Below are positions 1,913-61,803 of a stretch of DNA of 64,000 bases, one piece after another. The stretch's first letter is position 1, and every line of letters starts with the position of its first letter. The notes beneath the pieces are model-generated. The model ran no database searches and was not told the origin of the DNA. It was given only the letters and a program-made list of their open reading frames with translations. The DNA comes from Cyanidioschyzon merolae (Eukaryota), in the NCBI GenBank assembly GCA_000091205.1, contig AP006502.2. One strand, given 5' to 3'. A program made the position numbers and the translations under genes.

Positions 1913-3016
1913 CTCAAGATTGATGCGCGTTGCATCGATACTCGTCATCGATGACGTCCGCTGTTCGGACGCAGTACTGCGTAATCCCGGAGTGATGGTG
2001 TTCGCGCGAGCCGCTCGTATGTAATTGCGCGCATGGGATGCATCCGCGGGACGCACACCGTCATTCGGGGCACCCAGTCTGTGTCAAGCGCAGCCACAAA
2101 CCACGATCACTAAAGCTGTCGCTGGAGGCTCGCATGTCACCGAGTGTGATGCATCTCGTGTCCGTTCGTGTATCGTACTCTGCACGATGATCGCCGTGCC
2201 TCAGACCTGTGATCGGCGCGCAGCATCATCTCGATGCGAGCGGGGCGTCGACCTGTGCGCGCCCCCTGTGATCCGATTGCCCAGCTGTTCGGCGGAAGTG
2301 GAGGCGTCCTGCGCTGTGCGTTCAGCGACGCTCAGAGCGGCCGCACGCAGGAACTGACCGAGGATCTGATTCGGTGCTCAGTTGGATTCAGCGAGGCTCG
2401 ATCGACAGGCGATACAAAAGCGCTCATTTGGCTTCGCAGAATGTCTACGCATGTGTTTTGTCCTGGAGACATTGCACTGGTGTGGATATTCTGAGAAGCT
2501 TAGCCTGTCCAACGAGTCGCGCCACGACAGGTTCACTCGCTCTCTCTCTGTTTGCGTACTGCATGAAACGGTTCGATGATGCGGTGTGATGGGAACCTAA
2601 TTTGGATCGCGCACTGTGTGCGTGTATCACATGCAACGGTGCGATACGCCGCAGGGTTCTTGCGTGAAACTGTATAAAGCTCCTCTTCATATAAATATGT
2701 AACTGGTGGCGCTCGTTGTGCGTCGTTTTATTTCTCGGTAAAACGAGCGGACTCCGTGTCCATTGGAACATTGCTGCAGCATGTTCAGAGGCAGGTCCGC
2801 ATATCGACATTCTCCGAGGCCTGAGCTCCCAATCGCGTTCTTCAGCAAAGCCGCATGTAATCGAAGGAGCATCACCATGAGCGCCGTGCGATCACTGGTG
2901 CGCGCGGCCTTTTGTGCACGACGTTCAGGCGAGACGATGGTACGAGGCGCATATTTGGTGTCATCGTGCGGCGCAGCATGCGCTGTAGTCGGCGATGATG
3001 CAGTTTGCGTCAACAG

Positions 3017-3245
3017 GACGCAGTGCCGGATCTGCTGATGATTCTATACACCCACACGAAAATGTCTCATCCGTACATGGTGATGCAAGTTTTGCAAGAA
3101 GAGGCAGTGCCGGATCTGCTGGTGATTCGATACACCCCCACGAAAATGTCTCATCCGTACATGGTGAAGCAAGTTTTGCTAGAAGAGGCAGTGCCGGATC
3201 TGCTGGTGATTCTAGACACCCACACGAAAATGTCTCATTTGTCCA
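3017..3245. repeat. 84-bp tandem minisatellite, ~2.7 units
   Basis: The unit gcagtgccggatctgctgRtgattcNatacacccacacgaaaatgtctcatccgtacatggtgaWgcaagttttgcWagaagagg recurs at ~3020, 3104 and 3188 with a few substitutions. Two plus-strand frames read through (ORFs 2995..3291 and 3005..3283) and give repeating 28-aa peptides. Confidence 0.8.
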
Positions 3246-4707
3246 GAAGCGTCTTGTACGATGCCCGTCGCAGATTAGCGTAGGACACTAAAGTACTCGC
3301 TCTGGTCCTGCCTTGCGACTTTTCTCGAACATTTCTGTATACGCACCGCCTCGATATTCGTATTCTAAACATAGGGGCGTAGGGATTCATACATCGTTTT
3401 AGGATTCTCGGTCGTCTATTCGGGGTTACGCTTTCGACGTTCGGTCGCTGAAATGCGGTGCATTACCAGAATCAGCATAGTTCGCGAAGCGCTCCAGCAA
3501 GGTTTCCCAGAATCACCTCCATCATCAGCTATTGCATACGCGCAAGCTTCCACGCATCTCCTTTGCAAGCGTATCGCGTGCTCCAATCCTGCATTCTCCA
3601 ACGTTTCGATCTTTCTGCTTCAAGGTAATTCGTGGATGCAGCAGTTCACGTCAATAGATCGGCGAGGAAAACCACTGGACGTCGTCCCATGACGACTTGC
3701 TCGCTAGCTCATGCCAAACGTTCACTGGACTGCTCACGTCCATTCCTCGGCCCGTTCCAAAGACAAGTCCTGTTCTCATTGTGGAGAACGACGAGACGAG
3801 ATTCGACAATAGCAGCACACGGCTCATAGCGTACGCTCCCAGAAGCTCTCGTCTCTGCTGTTCACATCGCGAAGCGTCCTGGACTCGCACGTGAGTCGAG
3901 ACAGGGACCGCCTCTCACAGAGCAAGCGTCAACAATCTGCGTGAACGGAGCATAGGCGAAACGGAGTTTATCAACTTGGTCTCCAATCCGGAGTGTCTCT
4001 CCGACACCTGCTTCACCACGGACGTCGTGGCGTTCCACGTATCCCGCATCGAACGGAGCAACGTGCGCTTCCAAGCGCAGCGTACAGGGTACTCGCGCAT
4101 GGAATCGTTCAGAAGAACCCCGTCATCGCGTGGCACCGCACAGGGCGCAGGAACCGTGCAGACCGTTAGGCCAATGCTTCTATACCCGTCAAGGGCGTGT
4201 ACCGTGCTAAGAGGGCAGCGTGCACGCGCCACAGGGCCTGTCTCGAAGGCGCGTTGATTATCGACACCGAGAAATATCTGACTCTAGTGGCTGCATCACC
4301 GCTGCGAAGGACGCACCGAGGCCATATTCGCAAGCGTGACAATGGCACCCGCTGCGTAGATTGCAACTACGACCGCCTGCGCATGCCTTGCACGAACAAT
4401 AGCCGAAAGCAGCGAAATCCTGACTTTCATGCTGCCGCCGACACCCTTTGACTACGCACAACGCAGTGTGAGGAAAAGGAAAGATCGGCGTGTGTAAAAC
4501 CGGAGCTCGAAAGAGAGCAAAGAGAAGCGGGTGCTGGGGAAAGCGCGCAAAGACTGTTCTTGATGGCAGAGGCACGAGTTCCAGATTTCCACGTGAACTC
4601 CGAGTCAGCGATGAAGGACTCCTTTCCATTGTACGCTGAAATGGATCTGCTTCAATGACGACGCCGAGGCAGTCGCCACCGTCTCCAGTGAGACACGAGC
4701 ACGGAGC

Positions 4708-12292: not shown

Positions 12293-13292
12293 GATGATGC
12301 AGCCCGTCTCGCACACCAAGGTGCGGAGTGCACGTACCTGACCAAAGCGTCCACGCACGACAACCCAGGCACACGATCCACGCACGCGCTTCGCTTCGCG
12401 CGACGCTTTGCTCGATCGCGGCGCCTTGCCGGTTGCGATCCCGAGGGCGCTGCTGCCGCTCGTCGCTTACAGGTAACACACAGCGATGATTTTTCCGACG
12501 ACAACGCGTTTGTATGGACCATAGATTCCAGATTGCGGGACAGATGGGTATTCATAATCGAAAATGCGTCGACGGTGATGCACTTTACCTCCAAGTTCGA
12601 TTAATTATACTTCCTATCGGATGAACTAGTCGTGTCGTACCTTGTATCGTGCGGCGATTGCCCGCCTTGCTGCACTCGTCGTAGCGCTTGAACCGTTGGG
12701 TAGATGCATCACAGAGACAGAACGGCTTTGGCATACCTCGGCGGGCGTCGGTTCGAGGAATGCTTGAACTGACACGGGGTCAGAGTTTATCACCATGCTG
12801 GGAGCCGGGAAGCCGCGTAGACAGCCCTACTGCTTGCGGCAGCGCAAAGCGATATTATGGGAGTCCACTGCGACCATATCGACGCCCAGACGCAACCCTG
12901 AGCGCCCCCGATCCGGGAATAAACTGTGTTTCGGACGAGCTGCTCGGATCTCAGTAAAGCACTCGGCGCTAGGTGGAGCATGAAGCAAGAGTCTGGCAGA
13001 CTCGTCCGACTCGCGGGACCTTCCGCCTCGAAGGTCAACTTTCGACAATACGGAAACCTTTTCCTCTTTTTAACCCTAACCGTAAAGGGGCAAAGATATT
13101 GTTATGTCGTTGCTAGTTAGTGCTTCGTTTCTCTGCTTTTTTCTGCAGCGCGCTTGGTACTTTGCACCGAATCGATGGCGTTTGCGCCGCCTGTGCCAAT
13201 CGCGGGAAGCGCCTCAGGCCAGACGTGGCTTGCGCTAGGACTTCAGCTCAGGAGCTCGAGCGACCCCGGAGCGGAATGCTCGTCTCATACGC

Positions 13293-17176: not shown

Positions 17177-20100
17177 ATTCTAGGTTTTCAAACGAAGCGA
17201 CAGCTCTCTGGACGTAAACGAACGAATTCAGCACCGAGAGACGCTGTACGTCGATTTGGACAAAGCAAGATCAGCTGTGCATCACTAGTCTGCCGAGCGC
17301 AGGGCGATGATTGGCAGGGCGCCACCTCCGTGCGCCGCGCATGGAAACGGTGGCGATCGCGCGCATTCACCCTGTGGCGATGCGCGGCACGACTGAGACT
17401 GCAGCATGCGCCACCATTGATTCGCGCACGTCTGGTCGTTTCGATCTGCGTTGTGCGAACGCCACGTGTTCGCGCGGCGTCGTCAAGCGCGAATGCCTAC
17501 GCGGGATGGAATCGCTTTGTACAAAATTAGCGGAGGTGCAGCACTTGCCCAGGGAAACGTTTCCTGTGCCAGATCGAAGACGTTGCTGGACGCTTGCACC
17601 GTTCCATATCCAGGCGTTGATCGAGGTGGCGTTCCCGTACCGCTCTTTCCTGGATACTGATTTGTCTCATCAACATTGCCCGCATTTCAGCACGTTGCTT
17701 GCACAGCGTACGAGACAATTTCTTCGATCGTTCATCCGCCGCACAGCCGCTGGGCGCTCCGGCCGCACGAGATGGTATACAGCGACCAGATCGGAATTTA
17801 AAACGGCGAGGGAATTGAACGCATGAGGGCAAGAACGAATTCATCCCACCAGTAACAAAGCGTGCATGCACCATCTACGCCCAGCGTTGGATGCCTCGAT
17901 CAACAACCCGATATGTCTGACGCTTCCGAAGCGCGCCAGCGGCGTTGTTCCGCGTGAACTTTCGAGATGATGTGTGTCGTACGCAATAGGGGCATTGTGT
18001 TGGAAAGCGGAACATTTTTCATGAGGAACATCGTTGTCCAGTAGAGAGAGGGCATCGGATCTCTGCAACGACGATGGCACTGGTGCGGTGCAGGTCAGTG
18101 AGCCAGCAACGCTGAAGCGCCGCACATATATAGACCCAGAACCTGTTTCCTGGACACCTGGTGAAGAGTGCGTGTTTTCCCTGATTCGAGGTGAATGGCC
18201 ATAGAATGGTGTCACGTCAGTTTACCCCGTGACGCCGCCATGTCTTCACTCTATGCGCACGCAGCCGGTAGCAAACGTAGCACAGCTTTTTAGGTGACGG
18301 TGCACGAGGTCCGATCCAGCGACAAGATGCCTGCCAGGCACCTGAGATCAATCATCAGCCTGCGGCCTGCGTGTTCCTTGTTCGTTCGGCGCGCGTGCAG
18401 CCCGACCCGAGACTCTCGCAGGTATGCAGGGCGGTGCCTGCCTGCTTGTCTGTATGTCTGTATGTCTTTCTGACCAGCTGCTGATATGCGTTCCACGCGC
18501 GTATCGTTGCGCCTGGAATGGCCTCGCACTCAGCAGCACGTGCAAAAATGGGAGTGACTGGTTCAGGCCCAAGGTCTGATACGGATCAATGGACGCTTTC
18601 CCGGATGCCGAGAGCACTCTAGCCACCGGGGATCGCCAGTTCACGTACACGAGACTACGCTCAGAAAACTTATGATCATTAATGCCGTGCGTTGGCGACT
18701 CCAAGGTTGCTTGCCGAACCTGGGGGTCGAACCAATTATGATAGGTACCTGGGGACCGTCGCATGCAATTTCAGCGATGTGCATGGTGAGACGAGGACGT
18801 TTCTTGCTTGCTTTTCGAGGCTTGGCATGGGTGGCTCCGTACCAGCAAGTTACATACAATTTTAGATGAAATAGAATCGGTCCACTCACATGATGCGGGC
18901 GTACGATCCAAAGCTTTGGGCTCTTCACATTATCATGCGCACTAGTCATTGCCGACTGTTTATGCGATTGCTTCTTCTGGTCTCTTTCACCTCCGGCTTG
19001 AAATACACCGGTGTTTCCTTCTCTCAATCTCGACTTTCAGTCGTCGAAGAATGCTGATGGTAGCGTTAACGTCCCGATTTCGCTGCTTGCGGCTGCTATC
19101 GACGCACATCATCGTATACAGACGGTCGTTAGGATCGTCGCTTCTCTTGCGAGTTTCACCTGCTTCGTATGCAGCCTCAGTGCACCCCTGGGCAGCGGTG
19201 AAATTCGACTGTGGTCTGATGCTCCGCCAATGTCCATCTAAGGAACACCACCACCTCCACCTCCTACTCCATGTACCCTGAAGGCTGGCCTGTGGCACGT
19301 AAACGCTTGCTTCAGCACACGGTTGATGCCCTTGGCGGATACAGAAGCTTGCTGTCGATGGGCTCCTCTATCTCGTTCTCAAATGCCGTACCCGACAATC
19401 GCCGGCTTCGTCTTAGCGATTCCCCCAGCGAGGACTCTATCCGCTGAACGCACTAGCGCACTGCGTCGTATACCATCCAGAATTTGTGGTGCTCGATTCT
19501 GTCCATAATGTAAAGAGAACCGGAACGAATACCCCAGGTTAGAGAACAAGTCGACAAATTTCGATCCACTTACGTTGACTTCATACCAAGCGATGAAACA
19601 CCCTGCACTGGAAGAGATCGCGACGGTGACTGCAGTCCAATTGCATACACGTTTGCCGTGGAAGGACAAGTGACGCTGAGCCTCTCGGATCGTATCTCGT
19701 GACAGGTACAATGCTGGTGGGGTCGTAGCCGGCTTCGTCGATGGCCACCAAGCAAATGCATTTGTTTTTCGGCCAGAATGGATCATTTGACGTGACAAGT
19801 TCAGTGACCGCTCGAGACGAGCGCGTGAGCAGCGCGTCAACAGTCGCCGTCGAGTTGTTTTCGTTGTCAATTCATTTGGGCGGCGAGCTGCGCCTACGAG
19901 TTGCCTTCAACCAGAGGAAAAGCCTTGGAGAATGCGTGCTCTGAGCGTGCAGCGCGGAACTAGAGGAGATGAAGGGATACCACCACGCATGCGTTTGATA
20001 GTAATACCGTTTATTTTACGAATTGTCGTTCGATGGCGTCGCCACTCATCGTGATGGCAGTGACGAATCGAAACCCAGTAGCAGAGCGTCAAACGAGCCA

Positions 20101-22208: not shown

Positions 22209-22669
22209 AGCGTGCGTTCTGCAGCAACCACGAACGCTTCAGCACGTCATATCCGTACACGGGCGCACCTGGAACGGAGCACCGGTATCGGGAACGCCAC
22301 TGGAAGAGTTCCCAAAGCCAGAACAACCTCAATGCAGCGTGAAAATTATCAGTTACGCTGTGCTACGGTACGTAGCGCAGGGCACTTCCAGTGCCTACGA
22401 AATGTAGCGGTTGCCGCGTTGCTGCCTGCACGCAACCTCCCAAAGAATACCCAGAGCGTTGCACGAAGACCCTAAGGTGCTTTCGATGAAGTCCTACTGA
22501 ACACACGCAAGAGCTCCCGCGTCACTGGCCGTGCCTCGGAGTTCCGGCGACTTGTGAATCAACGATTGACGGAGGGCGCTCGGTTCTCGGCGGTATTGCA
22601 AAGTCGCCAGCCACACATATCCAAATATAGGTGCCTTTTAAAAATGATGATAGAAGCAATACGTTCGAT

Positions 22670-24280
22670 TTTCGAGTGAGTGAACGCATTCGCTGCTTGC
22701 AGGTGCAATTCATAGTCAGCAAACCGTAAAACGTTCTATGACCGTGGTGGGTATACATATACATACCCAGTCGCAGACGCCTCCCAGGCTTGTTTGCCCA
22801 GACGACTGCTATCGGCTTCAGTCTCTCCTCGCACACTTTGACCATGAGAGTCTGCACCACAGAGTCGGATCGTGTAAGCTCCTCGGGTATCGTCTTCAGC
22901 ACTGCACATCTTCTGATATTGACGGCGGCGTTAAGGTCTCGGTTCACGAATTGCTTGCGTTTCTTGCCTCAGGTGCAACTAACCGATGCAAGGATTCCTC
23001 GGACGCGTGCCCTCTGTGGTACCACAGTATTGCCACCGTCCTGTCGAGCAAACACCATTCTCGTCCATCGCCCTTCCTATGCTCCTTAGTGATTTGCTCT
23101 TCTTTGCTTGGTGGACGACGAGATGCGGATTTTTCGCTTATTTTTCCCCGCAGCCGGAGATGGTGGTCCTCCAGCATCCTTGACTCGCAAGTCTATACCT
23201 TGGCCCATGATTTTTTATTTCTTCAAATGGACGCACTTTAGTATACTCTCAGAAAAGAACCCTCCCAGAGGGAGAAGGACTTGTGCGAGAAAGACAGCAT
23301 ATGTCCCGGTATCAATTTGAGCTGAACGCTTCAGTGATTCGCTCTGTAGAGCGATCATTCCTTTTCAGGATAGAGAACATTCCTTTCATGGGCGTCAATC
23401 ACGGAGTATACGTAGGAATGAAAAGCACCGCTGCCAAGACAGAATCGGCAAAAGCTCGAAAGAAATCGAAATGGTGAAATATCACGTTGTCCAGTAGAAA
23501 GACGTCGCCAAACGTGAGGGAAAAGTCCGCTATGAATCGACAAAATGAGTGCTGTTGGATGAGCCCTCTGAATGAGCGAAACTGATGCCGCCAATTGTAT
23601 CCACTGCAGCTAGAACAGATGATGACGCCTTAGTTCTCTTCGCGTTCGATCGTGCGTACCATGGGCTCCCTGCTCCGCGAATACCCATATCCATCCCGAG
23701 CGTCTCGCCCAAAGGAACTCTCATCGACTGGAAAAACAAAGTCCTCGTGTTTCTCACCTATCGCGACGTTTCAGGAACGCTTTCGCTGCGATTTCGGTGC
23801 AAGATGGCCATGGTTGAACTCGGACTTTTGTTGGAGAGTGTATCTCAGTGTATTCAGGACCGCACGAACAAGCTGTTGTGAAACAGAGACTCCCCTGATG
23901 GCTACTATTATCGCTTTTTTCTTTCCGTAAGGTGATCAATGGGTCTTTTTATAGCACTGACCGCAAGCAGTCTTCGAGAACATCGGTTTTTGGCGCGGAG
24001 TGCATCTACGTGCCTCTTTCATTGTTCCTCAACCATCAGAGTCCAGTGTAGTGACTACCCTGAATGAGAAATGCAATCCTCCGATCACTCTTCAGTAAAG
24101 CATATATCCTGCATGCAATTCATCTACGATCTATCGGCCACATTGCAGCCTGACCTCGATCCCCGTTTATACGCCGCATCGAGCGCGGAACAGACTTGAA
24201 AAACGAAAAGCTTCACAAGATCAGGTCGGCACAGGTGGCGGCCGTGCAAACCCAGTGCTTCATCGTGTTCGAGATTTCCC
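22670..24280 (+). repeat. dispersed repeat family, copy A (~1.6 kb; possible degenerate mobile element or non-coding duplication)
   Basis: About 70% nucleotide identity, with indels not in multiples of 3, to 43727-44250 (same strand) and to the reverse complement of 44350-45900. Shared landmark strings include tacatacccaGtcgcagacgcctcc, gtctcggttcacgaa, gatgcaaggattcctcg, ttcttcaaatggacgcactt, agaacagatgatg and gcgcggagtgcatctac. Confidence 0.7.
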
Positions 24281-27122: not shown

Positions 27123-30100
27123 GGTTGCTGATGCGGCGAGAGCGGTTCCTGTCTGCCGTGAAAGACCAATGGAGCGAAACAGGGACCCTTTGAGATGCGC
27201 GTCGGTTATCGGCTGTCGCGGAAGCGGTTACATCCGGAACGCTCCAGTGCCGCCAAGCGGTTGCTGCCCCGGCTTGAGGCTCTTGGAAACAGCGGATACT
27301 CGTTTTCGTGCACCAAGGAGCGGTTGCGCGCCGCCATACCGCACAGCGACGACACCATAGTATCCTTGCAACCAGAAAGGAGAAGCGTGCTGCTCCCGGC
27401 TGGCCGAGGTGTTCTTACAAACACTACGGTACGAGTTCAAATTGGGTACGTTCAGCGTGAACGTTTCTAAAACCCAGAAGGGATCGTAACTGGCGTCTTT
27501 GCGTATACTCTTGCCGAGCGTATGCAGCGACTTGCAGTGTTTGTGCCTGGCGCGATGCACGGAAGCGGCGTATATTTTCTGTCGCAAAAGCGCTCTATAA
27601 AAATCATGCCTGCGACCGAGGACTTGCATTGAGAACACAAAAACTCGCCACAGGACGTTGTCTCTGGCGGTAGACAACGGCTTCGCAAGGATCCTGGAAC
27701 CATGATTCTCGGCTTGCTCCAGATGATGAACTGAAACGTCATCTATACACGTGTCAGGATGGAATGGAACGGGAAAGTTTTCGTTTTGTTCCTGCCTTTC
27801 GATTAGGCATGTTTTCGATAACCAACTGCGGTATTCGAAGTGCTGGAATAAGACACAGGAAGACATGGGTAGTTCTGGGGTTCTCGGTCGTCGTTTTTCT
27901 CTCTCTCTCTCGGAATGACGCCTTCGACGCTTTGCCGCTGGAGTTTTCCACTTCACTAAAATCAAGAGGACTCACGATGTCCACGAACAAGGCTTCGTAA
28001 AAGAACCGGTATCGTGATCCAATGCGCACCTACAACCCTCTACGCCTACCCGTTCGCTACATCTAGGGTACCCAAATCACGCATCCTTCAAAATTTCCAT
28101 GTTTCTAGTTCGAGGCACATCGTGAGCGGAGCAGTTTGCTCTTCTGGGGTGACGTGAAATAAAAACGCGATATCGTAATTTGACGACTTTCTCATAAGCT
28201 CTGGTCGTGGGTGCCATGATCTTCTTACTTTAAATGATTGAAATCCCCGAACGACAAAGCCTCCTCCTTTGTAATCATCGACGAAACTTTACTCGATAAC
28301 AACATGATACCTCGAATGGAAGATGCGCCCAGAGGCTCCCATTAATTCTCTTTGTATAGGGATGAGTCTTGGACTTGTGTCATTTCAGCGATCGCCTCCC
28401 GTGGTACATGCGTCATCGCTTGATACGTCGACGGATCGAAATGCCTCGACTTTTCTCCGTTAGGAAAAATGTTTCCTTCCAGTACTTGATGCACTATGGA
28501 CAGTACCGCGTTTCAAGAATGCTCAGTAGAACAGAGCATTGCGGACCTGCGCGTGCAGCGGACAGAGTACTCATCAAGAGTCTCGCCGCGGTGTATCCCA
28601 CGATCCTAGGGTACAACACTTGGCGCGGAAACCGAGCGCCGCATCTAGAGTAGCCCTCTGTACCCGTCAAATGCATCTACTGGGCGTTGAAGCAAGCCTG
28701 CACGCGCCGCACCGGAGCTCTCGGAGATGGAGGAGGATGCAAAGCAGACAGATGGGAACGCCCGATCAGCGTCAGGTTTCATCTCTGAGAGGGGTGCATC
28801 GACGCTGCATCGAAGGAAGCTGCAGACTGCCAGCAATGCGTAAATCGCAACTTGCGTCTGTGGAAGAAATGTGTCGACAAGAGCCGGCCACTATAAATTC
28901 AGGACTTGAATGCTGCCATTAACAACTGGAGGCTGTTGATAACACAGTAGGAGAGAAGGGAGAAACCGGTGTGTGGAAAGTCACAGAAAGCGTAGAGGAG
29001 CAGGAGGCAGTTACGGAAAAATCTCGCCAATGCTGGTGCTTTTGACATTTTGAAACAACCAAAAGATTAGACTGGAGGCTCGAGTGTGTCATTTGGACCC
29101 GTTCCATTTTACTCTAACGAGAATATAGAAGATGCCGGGTGTACGGAAGCTCTCGTGTCCGAGGTCTTCAACCGAGCGCCTCCTTTGCACGTTTACCGCG
29201 GAGGCAGGGTTCAGGGAGCGCCCGCCGCGTGCAGAGAACGCCGCTCTTTGGGCCGCCTGCCTCATGTGCTCGAAGCGTGCCGCCCTGCTCCTAGTGTGAG
29301 CAACCGAAATCAGAACCTGGCTACCCTACATGTAAACCAGAGGTCGAGCAGCCGCATTCCCGGGAAATGCGTAACATTGGCGTTATCTGCTATCAACGGC
29401 GAACTGGAAACAGTGTCCATGATAAAACCCTGGAATTTTTTACTCGCTACACAGAGTCTGAGCCTCGGTGACACTTGTAACCAAGCGAGAATAGATTTCA
29501 TGGATGGATACTTGCCAACGCATTGGAGCACGGTGGTATCTGCATGGTACTCACCAGGGAACTCATTCACATGTCCATGTACCACGCGACAGTTCCCGAA
29601 AAACCGTACAGTCGCCAATCTTCACAGCCGTGGCATCCTTGGAGTGCAACCATGAGCAGTGAGGCAAAACCCTTGCATCTTTTCGTTCCAAAGTTGCTGC
29701 CAAGCATCCTTCTGGTCGCATTACGATGCGTTCTGTTGCACGTTCTAGTGCGGACGCCCAAATCACGCTATGTAGCACAGTGCTCACTGATGTTTGCGAG
29801 CACAACCACGGGTCACGATGCCCTTATTCTACGTATTTTTCTAAAGCGCTTCTCCGAATTTCTGCCTACCAGGCTGGCAACCGGTGATGATCCCTATACA
29901 TGGTACGCGTTTGATGTATGCCGCTGCGGGTGCACGCGCTCTCTCATGCTGGGAAGCGCTCGACGAGGCGGGAAACAACTCTCCTGCCCTTGGCACCAGA
30001 TGCGCTTTTCACCAATATCCCATAGACGAGCGTACTCTGTGACGATGACTCATCCTGCAGTGCGGGCTGCTCTGAGCGTTTGTACGAAAACGAGAGAACT

Positions 30101-31297: not shown

Positions 31298-33836
31298 GTT
31301 CGAGACTAGCGGTGTCAAGTTCGGAGACAACGCCAGGAAACTGGTCCTGGACACGCTTTTTGAAGCACTCTTCAAGCGACAAGTCGTATGTACGAAGCGG
31401 CGGTGGCGGGTGTTGGGAGCGCCCTGCCCCCGCCAGGCCGCCACCGGGTGCATTCCTGTCCGCACGTTCCAGGCGAGGATCCTAGGGCACAAGCGCTGCA
31501 CCTCTGATGAAGCCTATTGGTTGGGGGTTTTCGCACCTGGACCTATGCAAGCTTTTGTAACTTTCGCTTTTATGGGCGTAGACGTGGAGCATAGGTAGTT
31601 CTATAAACGGTAAGATTGGTTACCTTTAGTGTTCTTGGCGAGTTTTCGCTCGTAGCGTTCGTTACCCGCTCAGAGGGGGAGCGCGTGGTGATGTATGGTA
31701 GGATGCGGGCTCTTCGTTCCTTGAGCGTTTCTCGTGGAGTTCGAATCGTGCAGTTACGACTGTAAACAAGCAGAGGAGAAGCCCGTAAGCTCAACTGTTC
31801 AATTGCTTGTGGGGCACTCTGTTCCATTGATGCGCGATGCGGCACGCTCATAGTCGAAGTACTTGATGCTTGCGCTGGTCAGCAGCAGCAGCAGCAGCAA
31901 TAGCACCAGTGTCCAGATTGAAGTAGCGGCATCCAACTTGCAGAGCAGATCCCGCGGGCTACTGCTGCCGCGAACAAGAAGGCTCCCAACGGGCGTCCCT
32001 CTCTAAACCCGAGAAGGCACTGCTTCGTGCCGGGCTCAGGGGCATTGTCGCCCGCCGCTGCTGCCCTGTCCTGCGACCGGTGCGCCGAGTGAACAACGCT
32101 ATTCGCAGTGACGCATGAGAAACACCGACCCGAGCGCTGCACGGCCTTTCTATGGGACAACGACAGATGACTCAACCGTGTTGGTTTCCGATCGTAAAGC
32201 GCAGCTCATATGACGGAACCACAGCACTGCTCAAAGTATCCGCTCGCACACATTCTATATACGCAGCGGAAGCAAGAAAACTCGATGGACGTGCGCGAGG
32301 TGCTCGGTACATGCATGTTAGAATAGAATGGAAAGAAACAACGTACTTAAGACGGGCGTATGCCCCAAGTATGGGATCTCTTCGCACGGTCATCGACAAC
32401 AGCCTCTGCGAGCTTGCTCTGACACTGATTCCTATTAAACTTTCTTGTATGCGGCTTGATATAAGCGGGTCTCTCCTTCCCCTGTAGCGCCGTTGTGAGC
32501 CGTCGAACGATGTGCATGGCAGTGCCCAAGTCCCGATTCCGCCGATTCCAGCTGTCGTCAACACAATCATGCAGAGACGCAAGATGCGATATACGCCTCG
32601 TTTGCGATGTCCATCTTCTTTGTAGACACCCTCGATGCGCCCTTCTCAGATCTGCGACTTGACTGAACTCAGGTGCGTTCATATGACCGTCATACAATAT
32701 CTTCCATCTCAGAGGGCAACCCTGTGGCACGTGAACACTTGCCTCATCGTTTCGGTACGTGCTCTTGACAGGTGCAGAAGGCTCTTTTTGATGCCGTCCA
32801 CTATTTCCGCATCCGGTGTCGTACTCTCTGATCACGGGCTTTTTCCGGGAGCTGCCCTTCGGCGATTACTTTGTCCGCAGCCAAAGCAAGCGTACGCTGT
32901 CTCATGCGATCGAGAATTTACTTTGCACGATACTGCCCGTAATGCAACAACTAACGGAACAAGAATCTAGGCTGGAAGTCAAGTCCAAAAATTTCCACCC
33001 ATCTACCTTCCCTTCCTGCCGAACAGTGGTCACACACGCTGCACTGGAAACGATCACTGCAATGACCCGAGTCCGCGTCCAAGACCATTTCCATGCAAAC
33101 AGAAGAAACGGGCGCCTCTGAGCACATATCCCATGACAGGTATCGGGTTGGTGTGGAATGCGGTTTCGTCAAAGGCCAGAGAGCGTGAGATTTGTCGTTC
33201 GAGGGAACTCAATCGTTCGATTTGACAAGTTCAGTGAACGCTCGATGTCAGCGTGTGGGCAAGTCAGCAGACGACATCGAGTACCTCTTCGGTCAATGCA
33301 GGTACGCGACTGCGCGGAAACGAGAAGAACCCCAGAATGGAACGCGCTGCGCGCAAGGAGAAACGCAGAGGCTTGTACATATGAACTCGATGATGATATC
33401 GATTATTTTACGAACCCCAGGTTCAGGGCAACGCGAAACGTCTTCATTCCAGTAACGTTACGTATTCCAGTGGCAACGAGTCGAAACAGATACTCCGAAA
33501 GCACCACCACCAAGCATCCTAAAATGACGCATACAACAGTGCGCCCTTCGTGCTGCACACTGAATCTCCAGGCTGCACATCAAAGCAACTTCGGAAAAAG
33601 TCGAAACCCAGGAACCGACCAAGCTGTTCAGGATTCCTGTTGAATATGATGCGGGTCTAAGAGACGCACGTCTCCGCGGCAAAGACACCGTGGGTACGCA
33701 TGGATCGCCGACCTCGCTTCACCGACACGAGTCTTTGCCGACAAGCGTCGCTTGTAGACACAGCGTCAACGCTTTGAACTGCCTGGAGAGATCCATGGCG
33801 CGTAAACGTCGGTACCTAGCCAGTTCAACACAGGGA

Positions 33837-43005: not shown

Positions 43006-43726
43006 TCCAGTACACTTCTCGTTCGTACAGAGCGCAGTTTACACGCAGCGTGCAGTAAAAACTCTCCGTAGCGCTCGTGCTCGTGTCAGCAGCTATGGTG
43101 GTGTGCGATCGCCCTTGCAGCAGTTTCGAACCGAACACAGGTAGCAGGCTGCGCGGGTGACCAGAGCCAACTCGTCCAAGAATGCCTCGCTTTCAGCTTC
43201 GTCAGTACCTTCAACTCTATGTACTTGTCAATGAACCGCAGGAAAAAACGGCGTAGGCCCGAGATCGTTCACAGCTCGGCCCCGATCTGCGGCCGCAGCT
43301 CGAGCAAGCCGTCACCAGGCCGCGTCGCTGCGTCTATGCACCACCTATGGAGCGTGTGTCCCGAACGGCCAACTGCTGGTCGCCTTCCAACAGGATGACC
43401 CTCTATATCCAAAACCCAAGCTGATTACTCAAGAAGCGAATAGGAACACACAGCAGCTTGGATGCACCTGTTACACACAACCACCCGTTACCAATAGACC
43501 TCCAGCGAGAGAAAGCGCCGCCCATCCATAGATTGGGACACCGGCGTCGGCGTCGATGTCGCCGTCGTCGATGTCGGCGTCGACGGCCTCATCGCGATGA
43601 ATCCACCGAACACCCGACATTCGTATGGCATTGCGGTAACGTGCAGTCATCGATCGACCATAAACTGGATGGCTACTTGCGATATGTCGTCAATGACTGG
43701 TCGACTGTGGGCTTGTGATCGTTGTT

Positions 43727-44250
43727 CAAATGAATGAGCGCGTTCCGTAATCATGTGAGGTACATGAATACCGACGGGCAGACGCCTCCTTGCCTTGTTC
43801 GACGCGCCCTCTGCTATCGGTGTCAGCCTCTCCTTGTACACGTCGGGTCTGAGAGGGGGTGCCCCTCAAGGCTGGTATACCGCAGCTGCACAGGTCTCTG
43901 CTTCAGTAACGCACACCTCCTGATATGTATAGCAGCGTGTAAGTTTCGATTCACAAACACAGTGTGTTGCTTGCTTCTGATTGTGTTCACCAGTGCAAGG
44001 AGTCCTCGAACTCGTGCCCTCAGTGCCACGGCAGTCTCGTCATCGTGCCATCGGGTGAACACCTCTTTATTTCCCTTCTTCTTCTTATTTTTGGTCACTT
44101 GTGCTTCTTCGATGGCTTGTTGACAAGAAGAGGATTTATTCGTTTTTTTCCTGCAGGCGGAGATGGCGGCCTTCCAGGATCCTCCACTTGCCTGTCCATT
44201 GCTTCCCGTTGGATTTTTGTTTCTTCAAATGAACGCACTTCAGACGCATG
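43727..44250 (+). repeat. dispersed repeat family, copy B (5' ~0.5 kb fragment)
   Basis: Aligns to the first ~520 bp of copy A, from gaatgagcgcgttccg...cagacgcctcc through ttcttcaaatgaacgcacttcag. Homology to A stops there. Confidence 0.65.
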
Positions 44251-44349
44251 AGCTGTAACCGCGAAAAAGTATATGATTTCGCACACCTAGGAGAGTTACC
44301 AATTGAAGGGAACGTCTAGCAACGGCAGACGGTGCCATTTCCGCACGTC

Positions 44350-45900
44350 CGGTAAAGGCGTCACGATTTCGCTGGACGCCACGAAGCACTGCTTCATATG
44401 ATCTTTCTACTCAGTTTTATGGAACGACTGCTGTGGTGTGTAGCAAGCCACGGAAATTACCATGCCATGTATCATGCAGGTCTTAGAAGAATTGCCTGTA
44501 GTTTCTATATTCTTAACTGAACATTGCAAGGAGGACTACATTCCTCTTCAGGTCAGTCATATCACAATACCCAGATGATTGGGGAACACTGGATGAAACA
44601 AGTAGATGCGCTCCGCGCGAAACACCGATATTCTCGAAGAGTCCTTGCGGTCAATGGTAGGACAGGATAAACACCATGTGGTAAGCGAAAGCGACGATCG
44701 CAGTCACCACGGGCGGCTGTGTTTCTCAACAACGTTTGAATATTGTCCTGAAAACTCTAGGATGCTGGCACAATACAGTGCTCGTACAATTACGGTCATC
44801 TTTCACCGAAATCGCTACGACAACGTTTCTGGAACATCGCGATCGGCATGAAGTACAGGGACGTCGGGTTGTTTTCTCAATCGATGAGACTGACTTGGGA
44901 CGAGCCAGTCGGAGTGTAAATGGGAATTCGCGGAGCATGGTGCCCGTTGTATTTACGATCGGACGCGAGGAGAAGGGTGGCATCATCTGTTCTAGGTGGA
45001 GCGGATTCATTATGCGACCTCGGATTCGCTCGCAGACATGGCTCATACAACAGCTTCGACCACTTTATCAAATCATTGAAGGCTTTTTTCCTGACGTCTC
45101 GCGCCATGCTTCCATGAAGCAACATGGCATTTGACCGGTCCCGTTGCGTTCGAGCTTTTGCCGATTCTGTCGGAATGTAGAGCCGCTTTTCATTGCTCGG
45201 TACCCGCGGTGGTTCAACTCCATCGAACACATGTTTTCTATCTTGAACCGTAATGATCGCTCCACTGGGCGAATCGCGGATGCTTCCAGAACACAGGGAC
45301 ACAACGGGGCACAGGTCGTGTTTGTTCCGCAAGCCCTTCTCGCTAGGGGCAGGTCCTCGTCGATGGTCATAACAAAGTGCGTCCATTCGAAGACAAAAAG
45401 ATCCAAGGGAAACTTTTGGTGATGCACGTCGGGGATCGTGGAAGCCTGGTGGCTCCAGGATCTACAAAGAAACGAACATATCCTCTTCTCTCCGAACAAG
45501 GAGCGAAGAGGAAGAGCACGGAAGATGGCGGAGGAGTCTGCCTGACGGGACGCCAACGGGACTGTCGAGACACAGAGGGAACGAGTTCGAGCAATCCTTG
45601 CATTGGAGCGTTCAATCATCGGCAAAAATCGCATGGAGTTCGTGAACCGAGACTTATATGCCTCCGCCTCTATCGGGCGACGTGCGGTGCCGAGGACGAG
45701 ACCCAGGTAGCTGACACGATCCGACTTTATGGGACAACCTCCCAGGATCGAACTGTACAATGAGAAACTGAAGCCGACGGCAGTCGGCCGGTCGACAATG
45801 GCGGGAAGGCGTCTGCGCGTGGGTATGTGTATTTACTCTCCATATTCGGAAATTGCTGTTCGCTTCACTGACGTGTATTGCGTTCATGCCAGCCATGTGC
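44350..45900 (-). repeat. dispersed repeat family, copy C (~1.55 kb, inverted relative to copy B)
   Basis: The reverse complement aligns to copy A over its whole length. The matching strings are acatacccacgcgcagacgcc, gtctcggttcacgaa, caatgcaaggattgctcg, cgaatggacgcactttg, agaacagatgatg and gcgcggagcgcatctac. The 3' end of C lies ~100 bp from the 3' end of B. Confidence 0.7.
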
Positions 45901-47380
45901 TGTTCTAGACTGAGTTAATGATCAAAACTATGTGGATGTATCGAAGCAGTGCCTGAAGCGTACTCGAATTCTAAGGTTCGGACAAGGCGCTCCGACGCAC
46001 ACACAGCGCGCTAATAGATTCATGTCCATCGGGAGAAGCACTGCATCAGACCGATGGCGTGCTCGTCTTTTGAAACCATACTTTGGGATGCAGGTTGCGG
46101 CGCATCTAGATATCTTGAAGCTCGTAACTGCCGGACAGACAGAAAAACGCATCATTCCAAGGGATTGCTCAAGCATGTCTTGCATCGCTGGATCAGGTTC
46201 GGATGCCTGGCAGTGCTTCAACATCTGGGCTCGATCGAAACCGAAAGTCTTCGTACAAGGAGCCAAAATCCCTTTTCTGCTGACTTGCAGCATTTCCGTA
46301 TTCGAAATACTCGAACTGGATGTACTGATTCTTCACGTAAATGATTACTGACGGGGTCCATGCAGATTTTCGGCTTTTCTCACGTCCATTCTACAAGAAT
46401 ATCTTTGCGTTTCCATGGACTGCAAAAAGGCGAGCCTGCGTCTTCGCATTCTATCGATAGTGAGGAAATTGGCGACAGAAAACAAACCCCTACGAAACGT
46501 TGCTGCTGTCACGAGACACTTTGAGCCTGCACGCCGCATATTCCAGGAACGGAATAGGTGCCTGTTGCTCCGAGCACATACCAGGCTGCGGCGGTGGCGT
46601 TGTACTGACACCATGCACCAGTTGACAGTCGCATGTGGTAATTTTCCGGCTCCGGCGAGAGATCGGTTGCAACCCAGAGGCCAATGGAATTGTTGCCAGA
46701 GGATCATGTCGAGATTGGGTAGACCCGTGGTATTCGGATTTGTTCATCGATCATCATCGTTCGTGACACGATCGACAGAGTGCATCCACGGACAACAAGG
46801 CAGGCAATTCGGATGACATGCGCTCGACCACTGGCTATGAAATCATTTGGTGCTTAGCTGTGAACGAGCATGGCGGTGAGTCTTCAAATCGAGGGTTGTT
46901 TAGGTGTGCAATACGGGTCAATGTGCCGGGCGCGTTCCGGGCAAGAGAGATCCGCGTCCACCATCAAGTCACTGGACGTATCCAGTTGCCCGATCAATAA
47001 CGTTCTGCTTATCGATGATGACGTCGTCATTGAAGACCAGACACAGGCGCGGAAGAACCGAGGATACTCACCTGGTCCCGATCGACAGTGTATCGCGTCC
47101 ACGTCACTGAGACGACAACAAGTTCCAGCCGCTACTGCCCAGGAAATGGCGCATGCTCTGGTCCTCCTCATTTCAGGATGGACGGGTTTCACGCCAGATG
47201 CGCTGGGCGCAGAAAAGCACGGGCCGTGATCTTCGCGTGCGCTTCTGGTAAACCGAGCAGGCCTCGTTGACATTAGTAGCGGCTGCACAGCCGTCTGCGT
47301 TTCATTTGGAGTGCCATCCAATCGGAGCATCGTCAAGGACGCCGGCCCCGAGTGTGCCGCGTACTCGCCAGTGATTGATT

Positions 47381-48451: not shown

Positions 48452-50198
48452 GAGGATCACGATATCTCGAGTACGTCCGCTTGGTTTAAGCGTGACGCCC
48501 ACACGCTACCCAGAGGATACAAACAGCGTTGGCAGCGGAAGGGCCTCAGATTCCAGCGCAGTTGCGCGCCGTGCTCGGATTCGGAACCTCCACCGTCGCT
48601 GTCGCTCCACTGGGCGAATCGCTGCGTGCGTTCGCGCCAACGCGGACACGTGTCCTACACGCGATCGATTGCGCACGCATAGAGGGAATGCTGCTGTTGC
48701 ATCGCGTGTTGATGGCTGATGATCGACTCCAGACTGCGCGATGCATACTGGGAAAGCACCTGTGATGCCGCAGCCGACCTCCATGATCGATGAGCAATAC
48801 GTCCTGCCCGATGCACTGGTTGTTTCGTGCGTTCCATTGGGTGCCGAGTGTCTGCGGGGCGTTCCCGCGATAACGCCCTACAGCACCGGTGAGGAACGCG
48901 ATCCAGTGGCAAACGCAGCGCGCAGCAACGACGTTCGCAAGCATATGGCCGGGCATCGTTTCGTTTGCACGTGGCGCGCACAGCGTTACTGCATGGGGCC
49001 TGCGCGCCATCCCGTAATGGAGGCGCTCGTCTCAGGAGGTACCCAGTGTCAATAAGCACACATGGGGCGAGGTGTCCGCAGGCGGCATCTGTGCATCTGT
49101 GAGCGTGTTGTGGCAGGGGATTTGGGTTAGACGAACGCGTTCTGGAATAGATGGCGAGGGTTCCTTTATCCGGTATCTTGTCCCGACATATTCCCTGATC
49201 TGCTGGTTGCACATTCGATGCATTCATGCTGCATAGCGATCAGCTCAACGGTACTAGCATGCGTTCGAGGCGGCTAATCAACGCTCCATGTCGACAGAGG
49301 TTCGCTGAAAATGTGCGTTGATCTCCATCGGGACGCACCCGAGGTGATCTCCTCACCATATCACATCGATGATCCTGTCCATAAAAACCATCAGTGTGCG
49401 CGAGTGGATCTCTAAATGAGCGCTGATTCTGCACGAGAAGGTGTTCGTCCACGGTCTGCAGTGAAGTGCCTGCAACGGCTTGGCGCACTCACGGCGTGCA
49501 AGCTGACCAGCACGCTGCGCGCTTCCGCCGCTTTCTCCAAAACGAGCTGCGTCCGGGCGACTGTGAGCCCCGTAACGGAAAGTGCCCTCTGTGCGCAGCT
49601 GGTCGACCATCGCCCGCATGACAACGCTTTGGATAACCCTGGACACTGCACGTGAACGAAACATCGCCACCAGGGTCTATGCTGCACTACCGAAAATACT
49701 CGATCATACAAGCAGATGCACTGCTTAGGATAGGATCCGTCTGCTCGTGAAGGTAACGGTGCCCGCACAGAGCTGTTGCGGCTTGTATCCCACGACAGAC
49801 TGGCGCGATTGCCTCATCGTCCGATGAATTTTCGGTGAATACCTGAACACGAAACTCATCGCCGCATACTCCCTGCAATTTCTATGCAGAGCGTACACGT
49901 ATGCATCTCAGTAGGCTGTCGCATCGGCCTTGGTCTCTATCTCGCCCAGCAAAACATGAGCTCCGCTTCCCTACCGAGCCTTTCGGGGGTAACGGTGCGC
50001 GCGCGCTAAGCCACACATTGTGGCGCCGCGAATCGTGGCGCTGCGGCCTCCGCCCGCATCACCCGCGCAACGGGCACACGCTGCGCACCATTCGCGTACC
50101 CGAGCTGAACACCTATCGGGTATGTCTGGCGTAAGCGGGTGTGGTACCTCAGCCTGATGCAACGGAACCTCAGCACCAACAGAACATGATTTGGAGTA

Positions 50199-58917: not shown

Positions 58918-60171
58918 TAGCGCATGTTGAACAGGATCCTCGGTTGCAGGCGGAATTGCGGCCGATCAGGCGAATAGATGCCGGTGTCTGAACGGAAGGT
59001 GCGCTGTTTGTTGGCGGCTCGCGGCCAGTATCGCAAGTTCGTATGCGGGACGCTGAAGTGGAACCAGTTCCTCAGCTAGCTTCCTGTTTGCACCTGGATG
59101 CTAAGCCTCGATGCTAGCTCTCTATGTGCAGTGTGCAGGACAGCATGCAGGCAAACAATGAAACAGAGCATGATCCTTATTCGTAAACAGGGCCAGTTAT
59201 CGTGCCGACAGACCCAGGATCCGAGTAAAGGAACTTACGCCCTGCACGTCTAGCTCCAGATTCGCAAAGATATGCATGTGAGCACGGGTGCAAGTCCATT
59301 TAAAATCAAGCGTACAGCGCTTGCTCGATAGATAGAGAATCGAGCAGCACGAAAACTGCATGTGGATGTCACGCTGCAGCGACATTTACCTCCATTTTCT
59401 TCGGGCTTGGACGAGCGACAACGGCTGCCAGGTGAGCCAACATCAACAGCCGAGCGCGATGCCGTTCTCCTGCACGCCCAGCAATGATATGCAGAGTGAC
59501 GGATTCCCATTCATTCCATCTGGTCAGCGCTCTTTCGCGACAACTGATATTAATGTAAGCAATCTGTTTGGAGAATTTACATACGCATGCATAAAACGGG
59601 ACCTTGTTTTCGTGCTGTTCTGCCTGGTCGTGAAGCGTAGCGCGATGCGTCGAGTCCTCGGTCGTTTCCGCGGACTGGAGCTATACTGGCGAATCTCGTC
59701 AGTGCACACACGTCAAGTCGACGGATATCTGCCTCTGGAATCGCTGGAATCGTTCACCAGGGATATGGGGAGCACTCGACGCTTCAAGTATGCCCTCTTG
59801 GTGCACGCTGAAGAATCGAATCATGGAACACCAGCATCATCTATCAATCGCCCAGGAAAATCGTTATAGGTATCAAGAAACGGTGCTCCAGCCCCTCGAT
59901 TCAGCGGAACTACACTGCACTAGTGCCGCGCTCTAGACGAAAGTCTGATCCCCGTTCCCCTCGCCACTGCTCTTTGTCCATCAGAATTCTTTAATAATTG
60001 TGCACCATGCCCACACGGCATGCAACACGATTCCCTCGAATATTCATTTGACAAAACGCTGCGGGACGCTTCGGAAGCACGAAGCATTTCCTCACTTTGA
60101 CCGAGGCGTTCAAGTCTCCGCGCAGAAAGTACGTGCACACATGATTGCTGTTGGAATTATACCATAACAAA

Positions 60172-61803
60172 CTACCTGCATTCGACTGCCTCGCCATCTG
60201 GCTGGACGTCAGCATACCGGGAATCATCCCGTACGTTCTGCTCTTTTGTGAGACGCTTCTTCTCTTCCAGTTCCAACGCGTATTTGTGCTTGTGATGCGC
60301 GTATGCTGTCCTAGACGCATCGATGAACATCGGATACATTGGATTGCTGCATTCGTTGTACGTTCTCTTCCGGGGAGCAGCGGTGCAGCCCTTGCGAGCT
60401 AGAATACGTCCAGGGCCACCGGCGACCTTCAAACGAAGCGACGTATCGGAAATTTGCTTTTCTAAATCATAGAGTATACTCGGGAATGCTCGCTGCTTGC
60501 GTTCGTAGAACTGCAACCTTTTGCGAACCTCTACTTTGTCTCACTGACTCCTGAAAAGTACACTCCGAGTGAGCCTTTCGGACGTTCGCGACTTCAATAA
60601 TAACGAAGCACACAGAGCATGCTTCTCTGCTCGATTAGGTACCGAGCGCGTTGATGTGGCCCTGCTGTCATCATTCCACCTGTTGTTAAACGTACTTGCG
60701 TCCATTACGCTGGATTTCCAACGATATCTAGCTATGGGAAGGTCAGCTCGCATAGCATCTTCTGTCTGGTGTACCAATCCTCGCGGGAATGTTTGATAGA
60801 AGAATTCCAGAGGGATATAGGCAGCTGGCAGCTCTGCGTCTGGAACTGTCACGAACAGTTGCATGACGAGATATGTCACGCCGAGGAAGGCTAAGCGAGA
60901 CTTTCTCGAATAAGAACCTATGCGATCGTCAATGAAGGCGAGCATGAATCGACGCCAAGGATACGTAAGATTCGTCTGCTGATCTGGGAGCGTAGAATTG
61001 GTGTTTGATGTAAGAGAAGACACCTTGAATGGGAACGAACCATGGAGAACGGGCTCGTACGACGATAAGCTCAACGCCAAGCTCAGTTGCGTACTTTTTG
61101 ACCGCTTTTGATTGATGAAAAGCGACATTTTCAGAGAGAGCAGCCACGAAGCGTACATCGCTGAAGAATGAGGTGTCGAATGATCCGGTCTGTTTGGCGA
61201 TTTCTAGGCGACCAAACGATTGATTCGCCGCTGCCACTGGTAGTGTCGCCGTGCTCGCTCGTCGCTGCTTTACGAACAGCGGCTTGTTTACACGTTTGAG
61301 GGCCCAAATACACAGGTCTGCCATTTCTCCGAAATAAAATCTCCCCGAGAAAGACGTACACACGTCAGTCCTGTAATACGTGTTGCAGTTTTACTATGAA
61401 ATAGACGGCGCTGCTCAACGCGCAACCGCCTTCCATGGAAGCGTCTTTTCTTCTCCATCCATGTCTTTTTCTTTCCTTTTGTATCAACGGCACGGCAACT
61501 GTGCATCTTGAGGCTTCTTCTACAGTATTTCTTCGTGAGCATGCAGATTAGAATGGCTTGCTCCGGAGCCAATTGTGTTGATCGAGCTGGAGAAACTCTG
61601 TTTTGTGCGAAAGGCGTTCTGGATACGGACTGCAAGAAGGATGGATCTTCCCGCACCTGTTGATTGCCGAGTACCTGGCTTGGACAGGAGAGGTCTTTTT
61701 CGCACGCTAGTAGAGACACCATCAAGCTAGTCCGCGAACGTTCTCCAATGTGCAGGATAGAATCCGTTTCTTGATTACCTGCCAGAAAAACAAACGCAAA
61801 CAA
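60172..61803 (-). other. run of four consecutive minus-strand ORFs in different frames (possible intron-containing, frameshifted or decayed gene)
   Basis: ORFs 61288..61803, 60929..61363, 60541..61158 and 60172..60516 overlap or abut on the same strand in shifting frames. The sequences are hydrophobic and protein-like (KSRLAFLGVTYLVMQLFVTVPDAELPAAYIPLEFFYQTFPRGLV). No family recognised. Confidence 0.15.

Follow-up and report, generated by a model that had tools for sequence, protein, structure and literature searches.

Three Diverged Repeats on Chromosome 20 of Cyanidioschyzon merolae Are Very Probably Relics of a Nuclease-Deleted Subfamily of the Fanzor1-Carrying Transposon CMe-1

Three repeats found in a stretch of 64,000 nucleotides of C. 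merolae 10D chromosome 20 (hereafter the window; of seven long ORFs looked up, six are exact matches to 10D proteins between BAM83444 and BAM83460) are very probably neutrally decaying copies of a single subfamily of CMe-1, a family of DNA transposons that carry a Fanzor1 gene. All three, designated A, B, and C, are dead, with both genes broken, and no present function is indicated. The repeat family is already known in C. merolae, and A, B, and C are ordinary decayed copies of it. An earlier note made from the sequence had described the family as unclassified; this description can no longer be kept, as the copies match the published CMe-1A Fanzor1 consensus and their 5' part is a pseudogene of a DDE_3 transposase.

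The ancestor of these copies would have carried, on one strand, an upstream IS630/Tc1-mariner-type DDE transposase of ~295 aa and a downstream Fanzor1 nuclease of ~734 aa. One deletion of ~1.76 kb, visible in the copies themselves, removed Fanzor codons ~56–642, including the catalytic residues of RuvC-I and RuvC-II, and left the 5'UTR, ~55 N-terminal codons, ~90 C-terminal codons with RuvC-III, and the 3' end. The truncated element, to judge from its presence at several loci, then multiplied, most likely by means of its own transposase, acting in cis or in trans. Copy B may be 5'-truncated or may have descended from a relative without the transposase.

Extent and Similarity of the Three Copies

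Self-BLASTN of the window aligned copy A (22754-24132) with copy C (45835-44478) at 68.1% identity over 1401 nt (E ~1e-127), copy A (22773-23241) with copy B (43778-44243) at 67% over 479 nt (E ~1e-32), and B with C at 64.6% (E 5e-17), thus confirming the three diverged copies that had been reported at about 70% identity. The same pairs were recovered again in a separate repeat search of the window. Copy B corresponds to the last third of A and C, in the sense of the genes, and lies head-to-head with C, ~100 nt apart. A nesting of C inside B found no support, as no rest of B was found beyond C.

The identity between A and C, taken per 50 nt, was even from end to end (~60–80%). Most of the gaps between them, with lengths of 2, 5, 3, 1, 2, 2, 4, and 1 on one side and 1, 5, 1, 2, 3, 1, 2, 21, 2, and 1 on the other, were not multiples of 3, as had been claimed. 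When compared to a consensus of nine copies of the subfamily, A was 75.8% and C 73.5% identical. The boundaries first proposed for the copies were right to within ~30–80 nt per end, but the ends were shifted by comparison with further paralogs to the positions listed in Table 1.

Table 1. Features of the three copies (positions of the window).
Copy A, whole unit: ~22716-24205 (~1.49 kb), minus strand; transposase pseudogene, internally deleted Fanzor1 pseudogene, and tail; BLASTN against C and B, ends from multi-copy alignments.
Copy A, DDE transposase pseudogene: 23255-24143, minus strand; ~0.9 kb with frameshifts and stops; tblastn, and Pfam DDE_3 match of the consensus peptide.
Copy A, Fanzor 5'UTR and approximately the first 55 codons: 23021-23241, minus strand; BLASTN to CMe-1A 868-969.
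Copy A, Fanzor C-terminal remnant (CMe-1 aa 643-728): 22768-23022, minus strand; tblastn, 53% identity, E 7.7e-19.
Copy A, 3' tail, subfamily-specific, ~50–55 nt: 22716-22767, minus strand; alignment of the 3' ends of 13 copies.
Copy B: ~43724-44297, minus strand; deleted Fanzor remnant and tail, without the transposase module.
Copy B, parts: 5'UTR from CMe-1A ~813, codons 1-20 at 44199-44140, C-terminus at 44038-43773, and tail; minus strand.
Copy C, whole unit: ~44404-45872, plus strand; BLASTN and multi-copy end alignments.
Copy C, DDE transposase pseudogene: 44661-45357, plus strand; tblastn.
Copy C, Fanzor 5'UTR and N-terminal part (45373-45476) fused to the C-terminal remnant (45576-45827): 45373-45827, plus strand.

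The strings that had been noticed as shared between the copies are all real and, when reverse-complemented, correspond to what is left of the coding sequences. For gtctcggttcacgaa, the opposite strand reads TTCGTGAACCGAGAC, coding for FVNRD of the Fanzor RuvC-III motif; in the transposase remnant, gcgcggagYgcatctac is close to the N-terminus (MRSAP, around residue 40 of full-length relatives). The short ORFs listed earlier (22738-23241 and 43734-44123 on the plus strand, 45068-45760 on the minus strand) do belong to a frame-broken unit, as was stated, but they run in the antisense direction of the real genes, which are broken. The unit had also been described as non-coding or long dead. Its stops and frameshifts bear out the second term, whereas a non-coding origin does not fit a unit composed of a transposase and a Fanzor pseudogene.

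The Fanzor Part and Its Internal Deletion

On the strand opposite to these short ORFs, copy A encodes VRGILASVSCT*GKKRKQFVNRDLNAAVNIRRCAVL, a RuvC-III motif of the TnpB/Fanzor type. Copies A, B, and C match CMe-1A in two segments only, at 813/868-969 (5'UTR and start of the ORF; MEKEVEDPGGPVSPAAGKKR) and at 2833/2850-3092 (end of the ORF), with BLASTN identities of 67–75% over the matched segments. Residues 640-730 of the CMe-1 protein detected the three copies in the window by tblastn, with E-values of 7.7e-19 (A), 5.6e-14 (B), and 1.6e-16 (C). The 9-copy subfamily consensus aligned to CMe-1A 806-1070 and, next to it, to 2833-3088 (79% identity there), and this jump from ~1070 to ~2833 indicates that a single deletion took the missing codons. 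About 145 of the 734 Fanzor codons are left, the C-terminal ones with the RuvC-III motif FVNRDxNAAxNI. A chance match of RDxNAAxNI to the N-terminal part of CMe-1 was considered and rejected, as the CMe-1A DNA consensus places the motif at the true C-terminus.

In copy A, the N-terminal peptide VKDAGGPPSPAAGKNKRK matches VEDPGGPVSPAAGKKRKT, the equivalent of the start codon (23196-23194) is ATA, and the deletion junction lies at ~23020 ± 15. Its C-terminal remnant, 71% identical to CMe-1A 2850-3084 by BLASTN, is interrupted by one in-frame stop and has FVNRDLNAAVNIRR as its RuvC-III motif. Copy B aligned by BLASTN to CMe-1A 813/840-969 and 2833/2840-3092 (tblastn E 5.6e-14 and 1e-3); its 20 N-terminal residues are 70% identical to the CMe-1 protein, and its RuvC-III motif has decayed to FVNRNLHAAIHIRR, in which NRD became NRN. 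Copy C, with matches to CMe-1A at 867-966 and 2840-3088 (tblastn E 1.6e-16), has the motif FVNRDLYASASIGRR in its C-terminal remnant. None of the copies has the complete RuvC triad and zinc-finger region that a working Fanzor nuclease needs: the D of RuvC-I and the E of RuvC-II are deleted, NRD is kept in A and C, and stops or frameshifts are present. Pfam gave no match for the raw ORF pieces of the three copies, and a sequence search of the PDB with a profile of the C-terminal peptide gave nothing significant. The tail of the subfamily, whose consensus has two small palindromes, is unlike that of CMe-1A.

The protein from which these remnants derive was analyzed through its relatives. The CMe-1 consensus protein has 45 metagenomic homologs, and relatives that have decayed less encode Fanzor proteins of 734–752 aa. 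In Pfam, the parent protein gave PF07282 (Cas12f1-like TNB domain) on the NRDFNAAINI stretch at a non-significant E-value of 0.2–0.5, and PDB sequence searches with CMe-1 and with a profile of nine homologs returned nothing significant. The best homolog (P0086, 752 aa) was modeled with AlphaFold2 from a 9-sequence alignment (pLDDT 58.6). Seven Foldseek matches of this model in the PDB had E-values ≤ 0.001, and all of them were Fanzor structures (9cez, 8gkh, 9cer, 9cf1, and others); the matches to SpuFz, GtFz, and PpFz, from S. punctatus, G. theta, and P. parasitica, respectively, had E-values of 6e-11 to 1e-7 and a probability of 1.0, with a TM-score of ~0.3. By its predicted fold, in a model of mediocre quality, the parent protein of the CMe-1 copies is a Fanzor. 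D484, E656, and D725 (P0086 numbering) are invariant across the homolog alignment and, from the context of their motifs (GADPG, VDEFRTS, and NRD), probably form the RuvC catalytic triad. The window copies retain only the third residue of this triad, which is N in B.

A Transposase Pseudogene in the 5' Module

In A and C, the ~0.95 kb that precedes the Fanzor start did not match CMe-1A, and its concatenated six-frame ORFs had no match in a set of 5.8 billion proteins. Searches with nhmmer, blastn, and tblastn for a variant form of TE-N2 or of the CMe-1A leader in this module were all negative. It became recognizable after a consensus of eight copies was built. On the Fanzor strand, this consensus has a frame of 181 aa, interrupted by a single stop and containing VDET...LLLDNVVFHHS...PPYAPWFNPIEGVF, and the peptide matched Pfam DDE_3 with an E-value of 3.1e-17 (63 bits, for a cutoff of 28.6). 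A piece of the consensus further upstream matched HTH_33 (E 6e-4) and HTH_Tnp_Tc3_2 (E 1.3e-3), both below their cutoffs. The transposase consensus has 230 significant database homologs, most of which are DDE_3 transposases of ~295 aa, with or without HTH_Tnp_Tc3_2.

Two metagenomic transposases that were outside the consensus build, P0140 and P0132, were used as independent tblastn queries. On copy A, residues 1-158 of P0140 aligned at 24143-23667 (E 7.5e-12) and residues 67-274 at 23935-23318 (E 2e-18), and P0132 matched with an E-value of 2.5e-27. On copy C, the consensus transposase matched at 44661-45296 (E 3.9e-52), P0132 at 44944-45357 (E 2.6e-8), and P0140 at 44694-45284 (E 2.9e-6). 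The module is absent from B. The DDE_3 match of the consensus, together with these direct matches on A and C, shows that the unit consists of an IS630/Tc1-mariner-type transposase gene followed, on the same strand, by a Fanzor1 gene, both of which are now pseudogenes. Given the transposase remnant in A and C, the ancestor of the subfamily may have been able to transpose autonomously.

Element Ends

Homology among the copies begins at ~TCTTTCAACTCAATTTTGTTTCACC, ~60 nt ahead of the transposase start, and stops ~55 nt past GGAGGCGTCTGC. Our searches of the ends agree with the earlier observation that no LTRs, TIRs, or poly-A tail are evident. In end-to-end local alignments, the scores observed for TIRs were reached by shuffles in 29 of 300 cases for A, 79 of 300 for C, and 185 of 300 for the consensus; a PWM scan remained below background, and the repeat search of the window reported no terminal pair, in copies whose ~25% decay could mask short TIRs. 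Short inverted matches between the ends of A (24150-24270 versus 22650-22790) and of C (44340-44460 versus 45800-45940) did not exceed shuffles and were not seen in other copies. In five of eight copies, a TA dinucleotide precedes the first conserved base by 0–5 nt; a matching 3' boundary was not found, and the termini are approximate. Since neither TIRs nor TA duplications were found, it is the transposase remnant that points to a cut-and-paste mechanism of the mariner type.

Paralogs, Spread, and Decay

A search of metagenomes with the C-terminal peptide as the seed yielded 80 loci of 376 relatives, and the paralogs described here are hot-spring metagenome contigs of close relatives, not the 10D assembly itself. 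The 5' module recurs in paralogous loci at ~70% identity and is also present in L035. The layout and deletion of A and C were found in L014, L041, and L079b, while L078 and L083/L084 have the transposase module ahead of a full-length Fanzor ORF. L014, the best paralog, was tried as a source of an intact transposase, but it is still broken. The deletion is common to the copies and both ends are retained; A and C have the transposase remnant, and only B and three paralogous loci (L028, L051, and L052) have a deleted Fanzor without it. The identical deletion was present in at least five further paralogous loci with unrelated flanks, and such common breakpoints at several unrelated loci imply that the truncated element multiplied after the loss of the nuclease.

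Pairwise identities of 65–70%, and of 73–81% to the consensus, fit one deletion, a burst of spread, and independent decay rather than local duplication. By tblastx, all six frames were equally conserved between the copies, which thus diverged without reading-frame constraint. In agreement with this, the A unit could be compared with that of a related strain, in an orthologous stretch of 22 kb (L006) that is 98.9% identical overall. The two differed by 1.21% in the A unit, by 0.9–1.34% in other non-ORF DNA, and by 0.6–0.8% in two conserved ORFs. This intergenic-like divergence between strains, with no sign of constraint, marks the copies as neutral relics.

These results bear on several proposals of the earlier note. 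Its view of a dispersed, old, and decayed family of transposable elements, derived from a larger transposon, is supported by the match to CMe-1A, and the high genomic copy number that it expected agrees with published counts of ~150 (PMC3627910) to 253 copies (PMC1955436). It had also considered that an intact ORF in other copies would point to a gene family. Relatives do encode the 734–752 aa Fanzor, which makes the family a gene-carrying transposon, but the copies of the window are all broken.

Alternative Explanations

If A, B, and C had arisen from one another locally, through segmental or inverted duplication inside the 64-kb region, this would account for three copies lying within 23 kb and for the head-to-head arrangement of B and C. 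However, the copies share 65–68% identity with each other versus 68–70% with paralogs on unrelated contigs, their flanks are without similarity, and the published family comprises 150–253 copies (PMC3627910, PMC1955436). Local duplication, which the earlier note had named as a challenge to a dispersed family, is excluded in its segmental form by these equally diverged paralogs at unrelated loci, and we give this origin practically no credence. It is equally hard to believe that the copies are small functional genes, in which the Fanzor N-terminus, with its NLS-like GKKRK, is fused to the ~90 C-terminal residues. The N- and C-terminal remnants of copy A are in one frame, and L014 has an ORF of 121 aa across the fused region; yet there are three in-frame stops in A and stops or frameshifts in B and C, the start codon of copy A is ATA, the catalytic D and E were lost with the deletion, the remaining D is N in B, and all frames are equally conserved.

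The copies could also be satellites of a guide RNA (omega/fRNA), which would keep the 3' ~310 nt and the element end while Fanzor is provided in trans by full-length copies. Precisely the tail and the 3' end of the ORF escaped the deletion, the deleted form occurs at no fewer than five further loci, the guide RNA of characterized Fanzor loci sits at the element's 3' end, in overlap with the end of the ORF, and stand-alone fRNA copies have been reported in Chlamydomonas (PMC10530073). The RNA analyses, however, make this explanation improbable. Folding z-scores were just -2.15 for the 3' 330 nt of CMe-1A and -1.17 for the subfamily consensus, RNAalifold on 40 paralogs gave a weak consensus of -6 kcal/mol, and the covariation in two hand-specified 3' structures was reached by 54–253 of 500 shuffles. 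Moreover, the 3' part decays like the remainder of the element (~70% identity). The whole window contained no Rfam match at the gathering score and no tRNA; with no significant folding or covariation either, the suggestion that the repeats form a family of non-coding RNA genes was not supported. Neutral decay of CMe-1 copies that had lost the nuclease core is the explanation that we retain.

Relationship to Known Elements

CMe-1A is the Fanzor1 element of C. merolae described by Bao and Jurka (2013, Mob DNA 4:12, PMC3627910), with a 3169-bp consensus and an ORF of 734 aa. It was reported with ~150 copies, each ~80% identical to the consensus, without TIRs, with TSDs undetermined, and with its classification unknown, and its first 635 bp constitute a separate repeat, TE-N2_CMe (PMC3627910). 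Nozaki (2007) had described a novel interspersed element of 253 copies with an average size of 3.2 kb, covering ~5% of the genome and transcribed, which contains a truncated ORF weakly similar to WSV486 of WSSV (PMC1955436); one Fanzor1 of WSSV is listed in the table of Bao and Jurka (PMC3627910). From their size, their abundance, and the link to WSSV, CMe-1 and the repeat of Nozaki are probably one family.

The window copies resemble CMe-1A in being from the same genome, in retaining parts of the same Fanzor protein, in their nucleotide identity of 71–79% to its consensus over the 5'UTR with the ORF start and over the ORF end, in their age class (copies ~75–80% identical to the consensus), and in having no recognizable TIRs or TSDs. 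In contrast, they are without CMe-1A 1071-2832, the TE-N2_CMe and unrelated leader of CMe-1A (1 to ~800) are replaced in A and C by a DDE transposase pseudogene, and their last ~55 nt are unlike CMe-1A 3093-3169. In the published descriptions of CMe-1 and Fanzor that we examined, neither the transposase-bearing subfamily, nor the Fanzor-deleted derivative, nor the alternative 5' and 3' modules are mentioned, although Repbase may have entries for them.

Mariner/Tc1 transposons that carry Fanzor1 were already described (PMC3627910, PMC10530073, PMC10711439). PUl-1 of Pythium ultimum, PGv-1 (PMC3627910), and the Mariner/Tc1 associations of Jiang et al. (2023) likewise have an upstream DDE transposase, of the DDE_3/HTH_Tnp_Tc3 type, and a downstream Fanzor1 on one strand. 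Those elements have clear TIRs of 24–33 bp and TA duplications, which were not found in the window copies, and the latter consist of two pseudogenes with an internally deleted Fanzor. The subfamily may also be compared to derivatives formed by internal deletion, such as MITE precursors and the bacterial PATE or guide-only IS200/IS605 elements, in which one common deletion is likewise followed by amplification with the ends kept. The subfamily differs from them in that it lost the accessory nuclease and not the transposase, and in the size of its unit, which at 1.5 kb is not miniature.

A transposase partner and a superfamily for one subfamily of the C. merolae Fanzor repeat, in both full-length and deleted members, suggest how the family moved, and the spread of a Fanzor-deleted subfamily bears weakly on the need for Fanzor in cis. 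A broader scenario, which we put forward as speculative, is that the dominant repeat of C. merolae (~5% of the genome) stems from an autonomous Fanzor1-carrying IS630/Tc1-mariner transposon, one lineage of which lost the nuclease core, retained the 3' end and the would-be guide-RNA region, and continued to spread. If this were true, Fanzor would be dispensable in cis for transposition, and trans-complementation by full-length copies would be suggested, as a eukaryotic parallel to guide-only TnpB satellites. Whether the Fanzor-less lineage is informative on the maintenance of trans-acting Fanzor and guides is similarly doubtful. For annotation, the loci of A, B, and C should be masked and labeled as CMe-1/Fanzor1 remnants and not as a new class of repeat or a family of non-coding RNAs.

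No trace of a transposase was found in the published CMe-1A consensus or in most of the full-length CMe-1 copies. The association with the transposase holds for one subfamily and for a divergent element of the window, which falls short of proof for the family as a whole. This second element, at 60003-61700, has the same layout, with the transposase followed by Fanzor.

A second transposase-Fanzor element

A second two-gene element, more divergent than the decayed CMe-1-type copies A and C, was found on the minus strand with the same layout, the transposase coming first and the Fanzor gene next.

60003-61700, minus strand: whole element
61700-60938, minus strand: DDE_3 transposase pseudogene (tblastn with two metagenomic transposases: P0132, E 4e-27; P0140, E 8e-23)
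60945-60003, minus strand: Fanzor pseudogene, matching P0124-like aa 65-133 and aa 433-673

The Fanzor pseudogene is P0124-like and belongs to a family other than CMe-1, with which it shares about 43% identity. Since its aa 65-133 (60945-60733) directly abut aa 433-673 (60732-60003), it has undergone an internal deletion of its own. A very weak Fanzor C-terminal-like match to P0124 (17848-17934, plus strand; aa 624-652, tblastn E 0.085) may be due to chance or represent a tiny additional Fanzor remnant.

Arrangement and internal repeats of Fanzor copies

Copies B and C (43724-45872) lie 5' end to 5' end. Similar head-to-head CMe-1-type pairs were observed at several unrelated hot-spring metagenome loci (L052/L058, L086, L072, and L015). 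Such recurrence may reflect either a preference during insertion or the formation of inverted dimers.

In many full-length Fanzor copies, a segment of about 78 bp (2117-2196 of the CMe-1A consensus) is present as 2-5 tandem copies (loci L021-L024, L027, L039, L047-L049, and L087, and the Fanzor homolog P0086). The P0086 repeats preserve the reading frame and appear in the protein as successive KHEEKKEADPxxQEVQDND units immediately before the RuvC-I motif.

Other repeats in the window

At the metagenome loci, copies of the TE-N2 repeat adjoin many of the Fanzor copies. The window also contains TE-N2_CMe sequences, another old dispersed family (three stretches, about 64-69% identity), and two tandem arrays.

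12496-13144, plus strand: TE-N2_CMe copy, 80% identical to CMe-1A 1-641
48729-48855, plus strand: 130-nt fragment, matching CMe-1A 33-165
19289-19855, 28233-28887, and 32548-33282: dispersed family
62765-63665: tandem array, period 121-123 bp, about 7 units, some 97-100% identical
3011-3262: tandem array, three 84-bp units

The dispersed family is unrelated to CMe-1A, and its relatives were found at metagenome loci L029, L036, L047, and L074.
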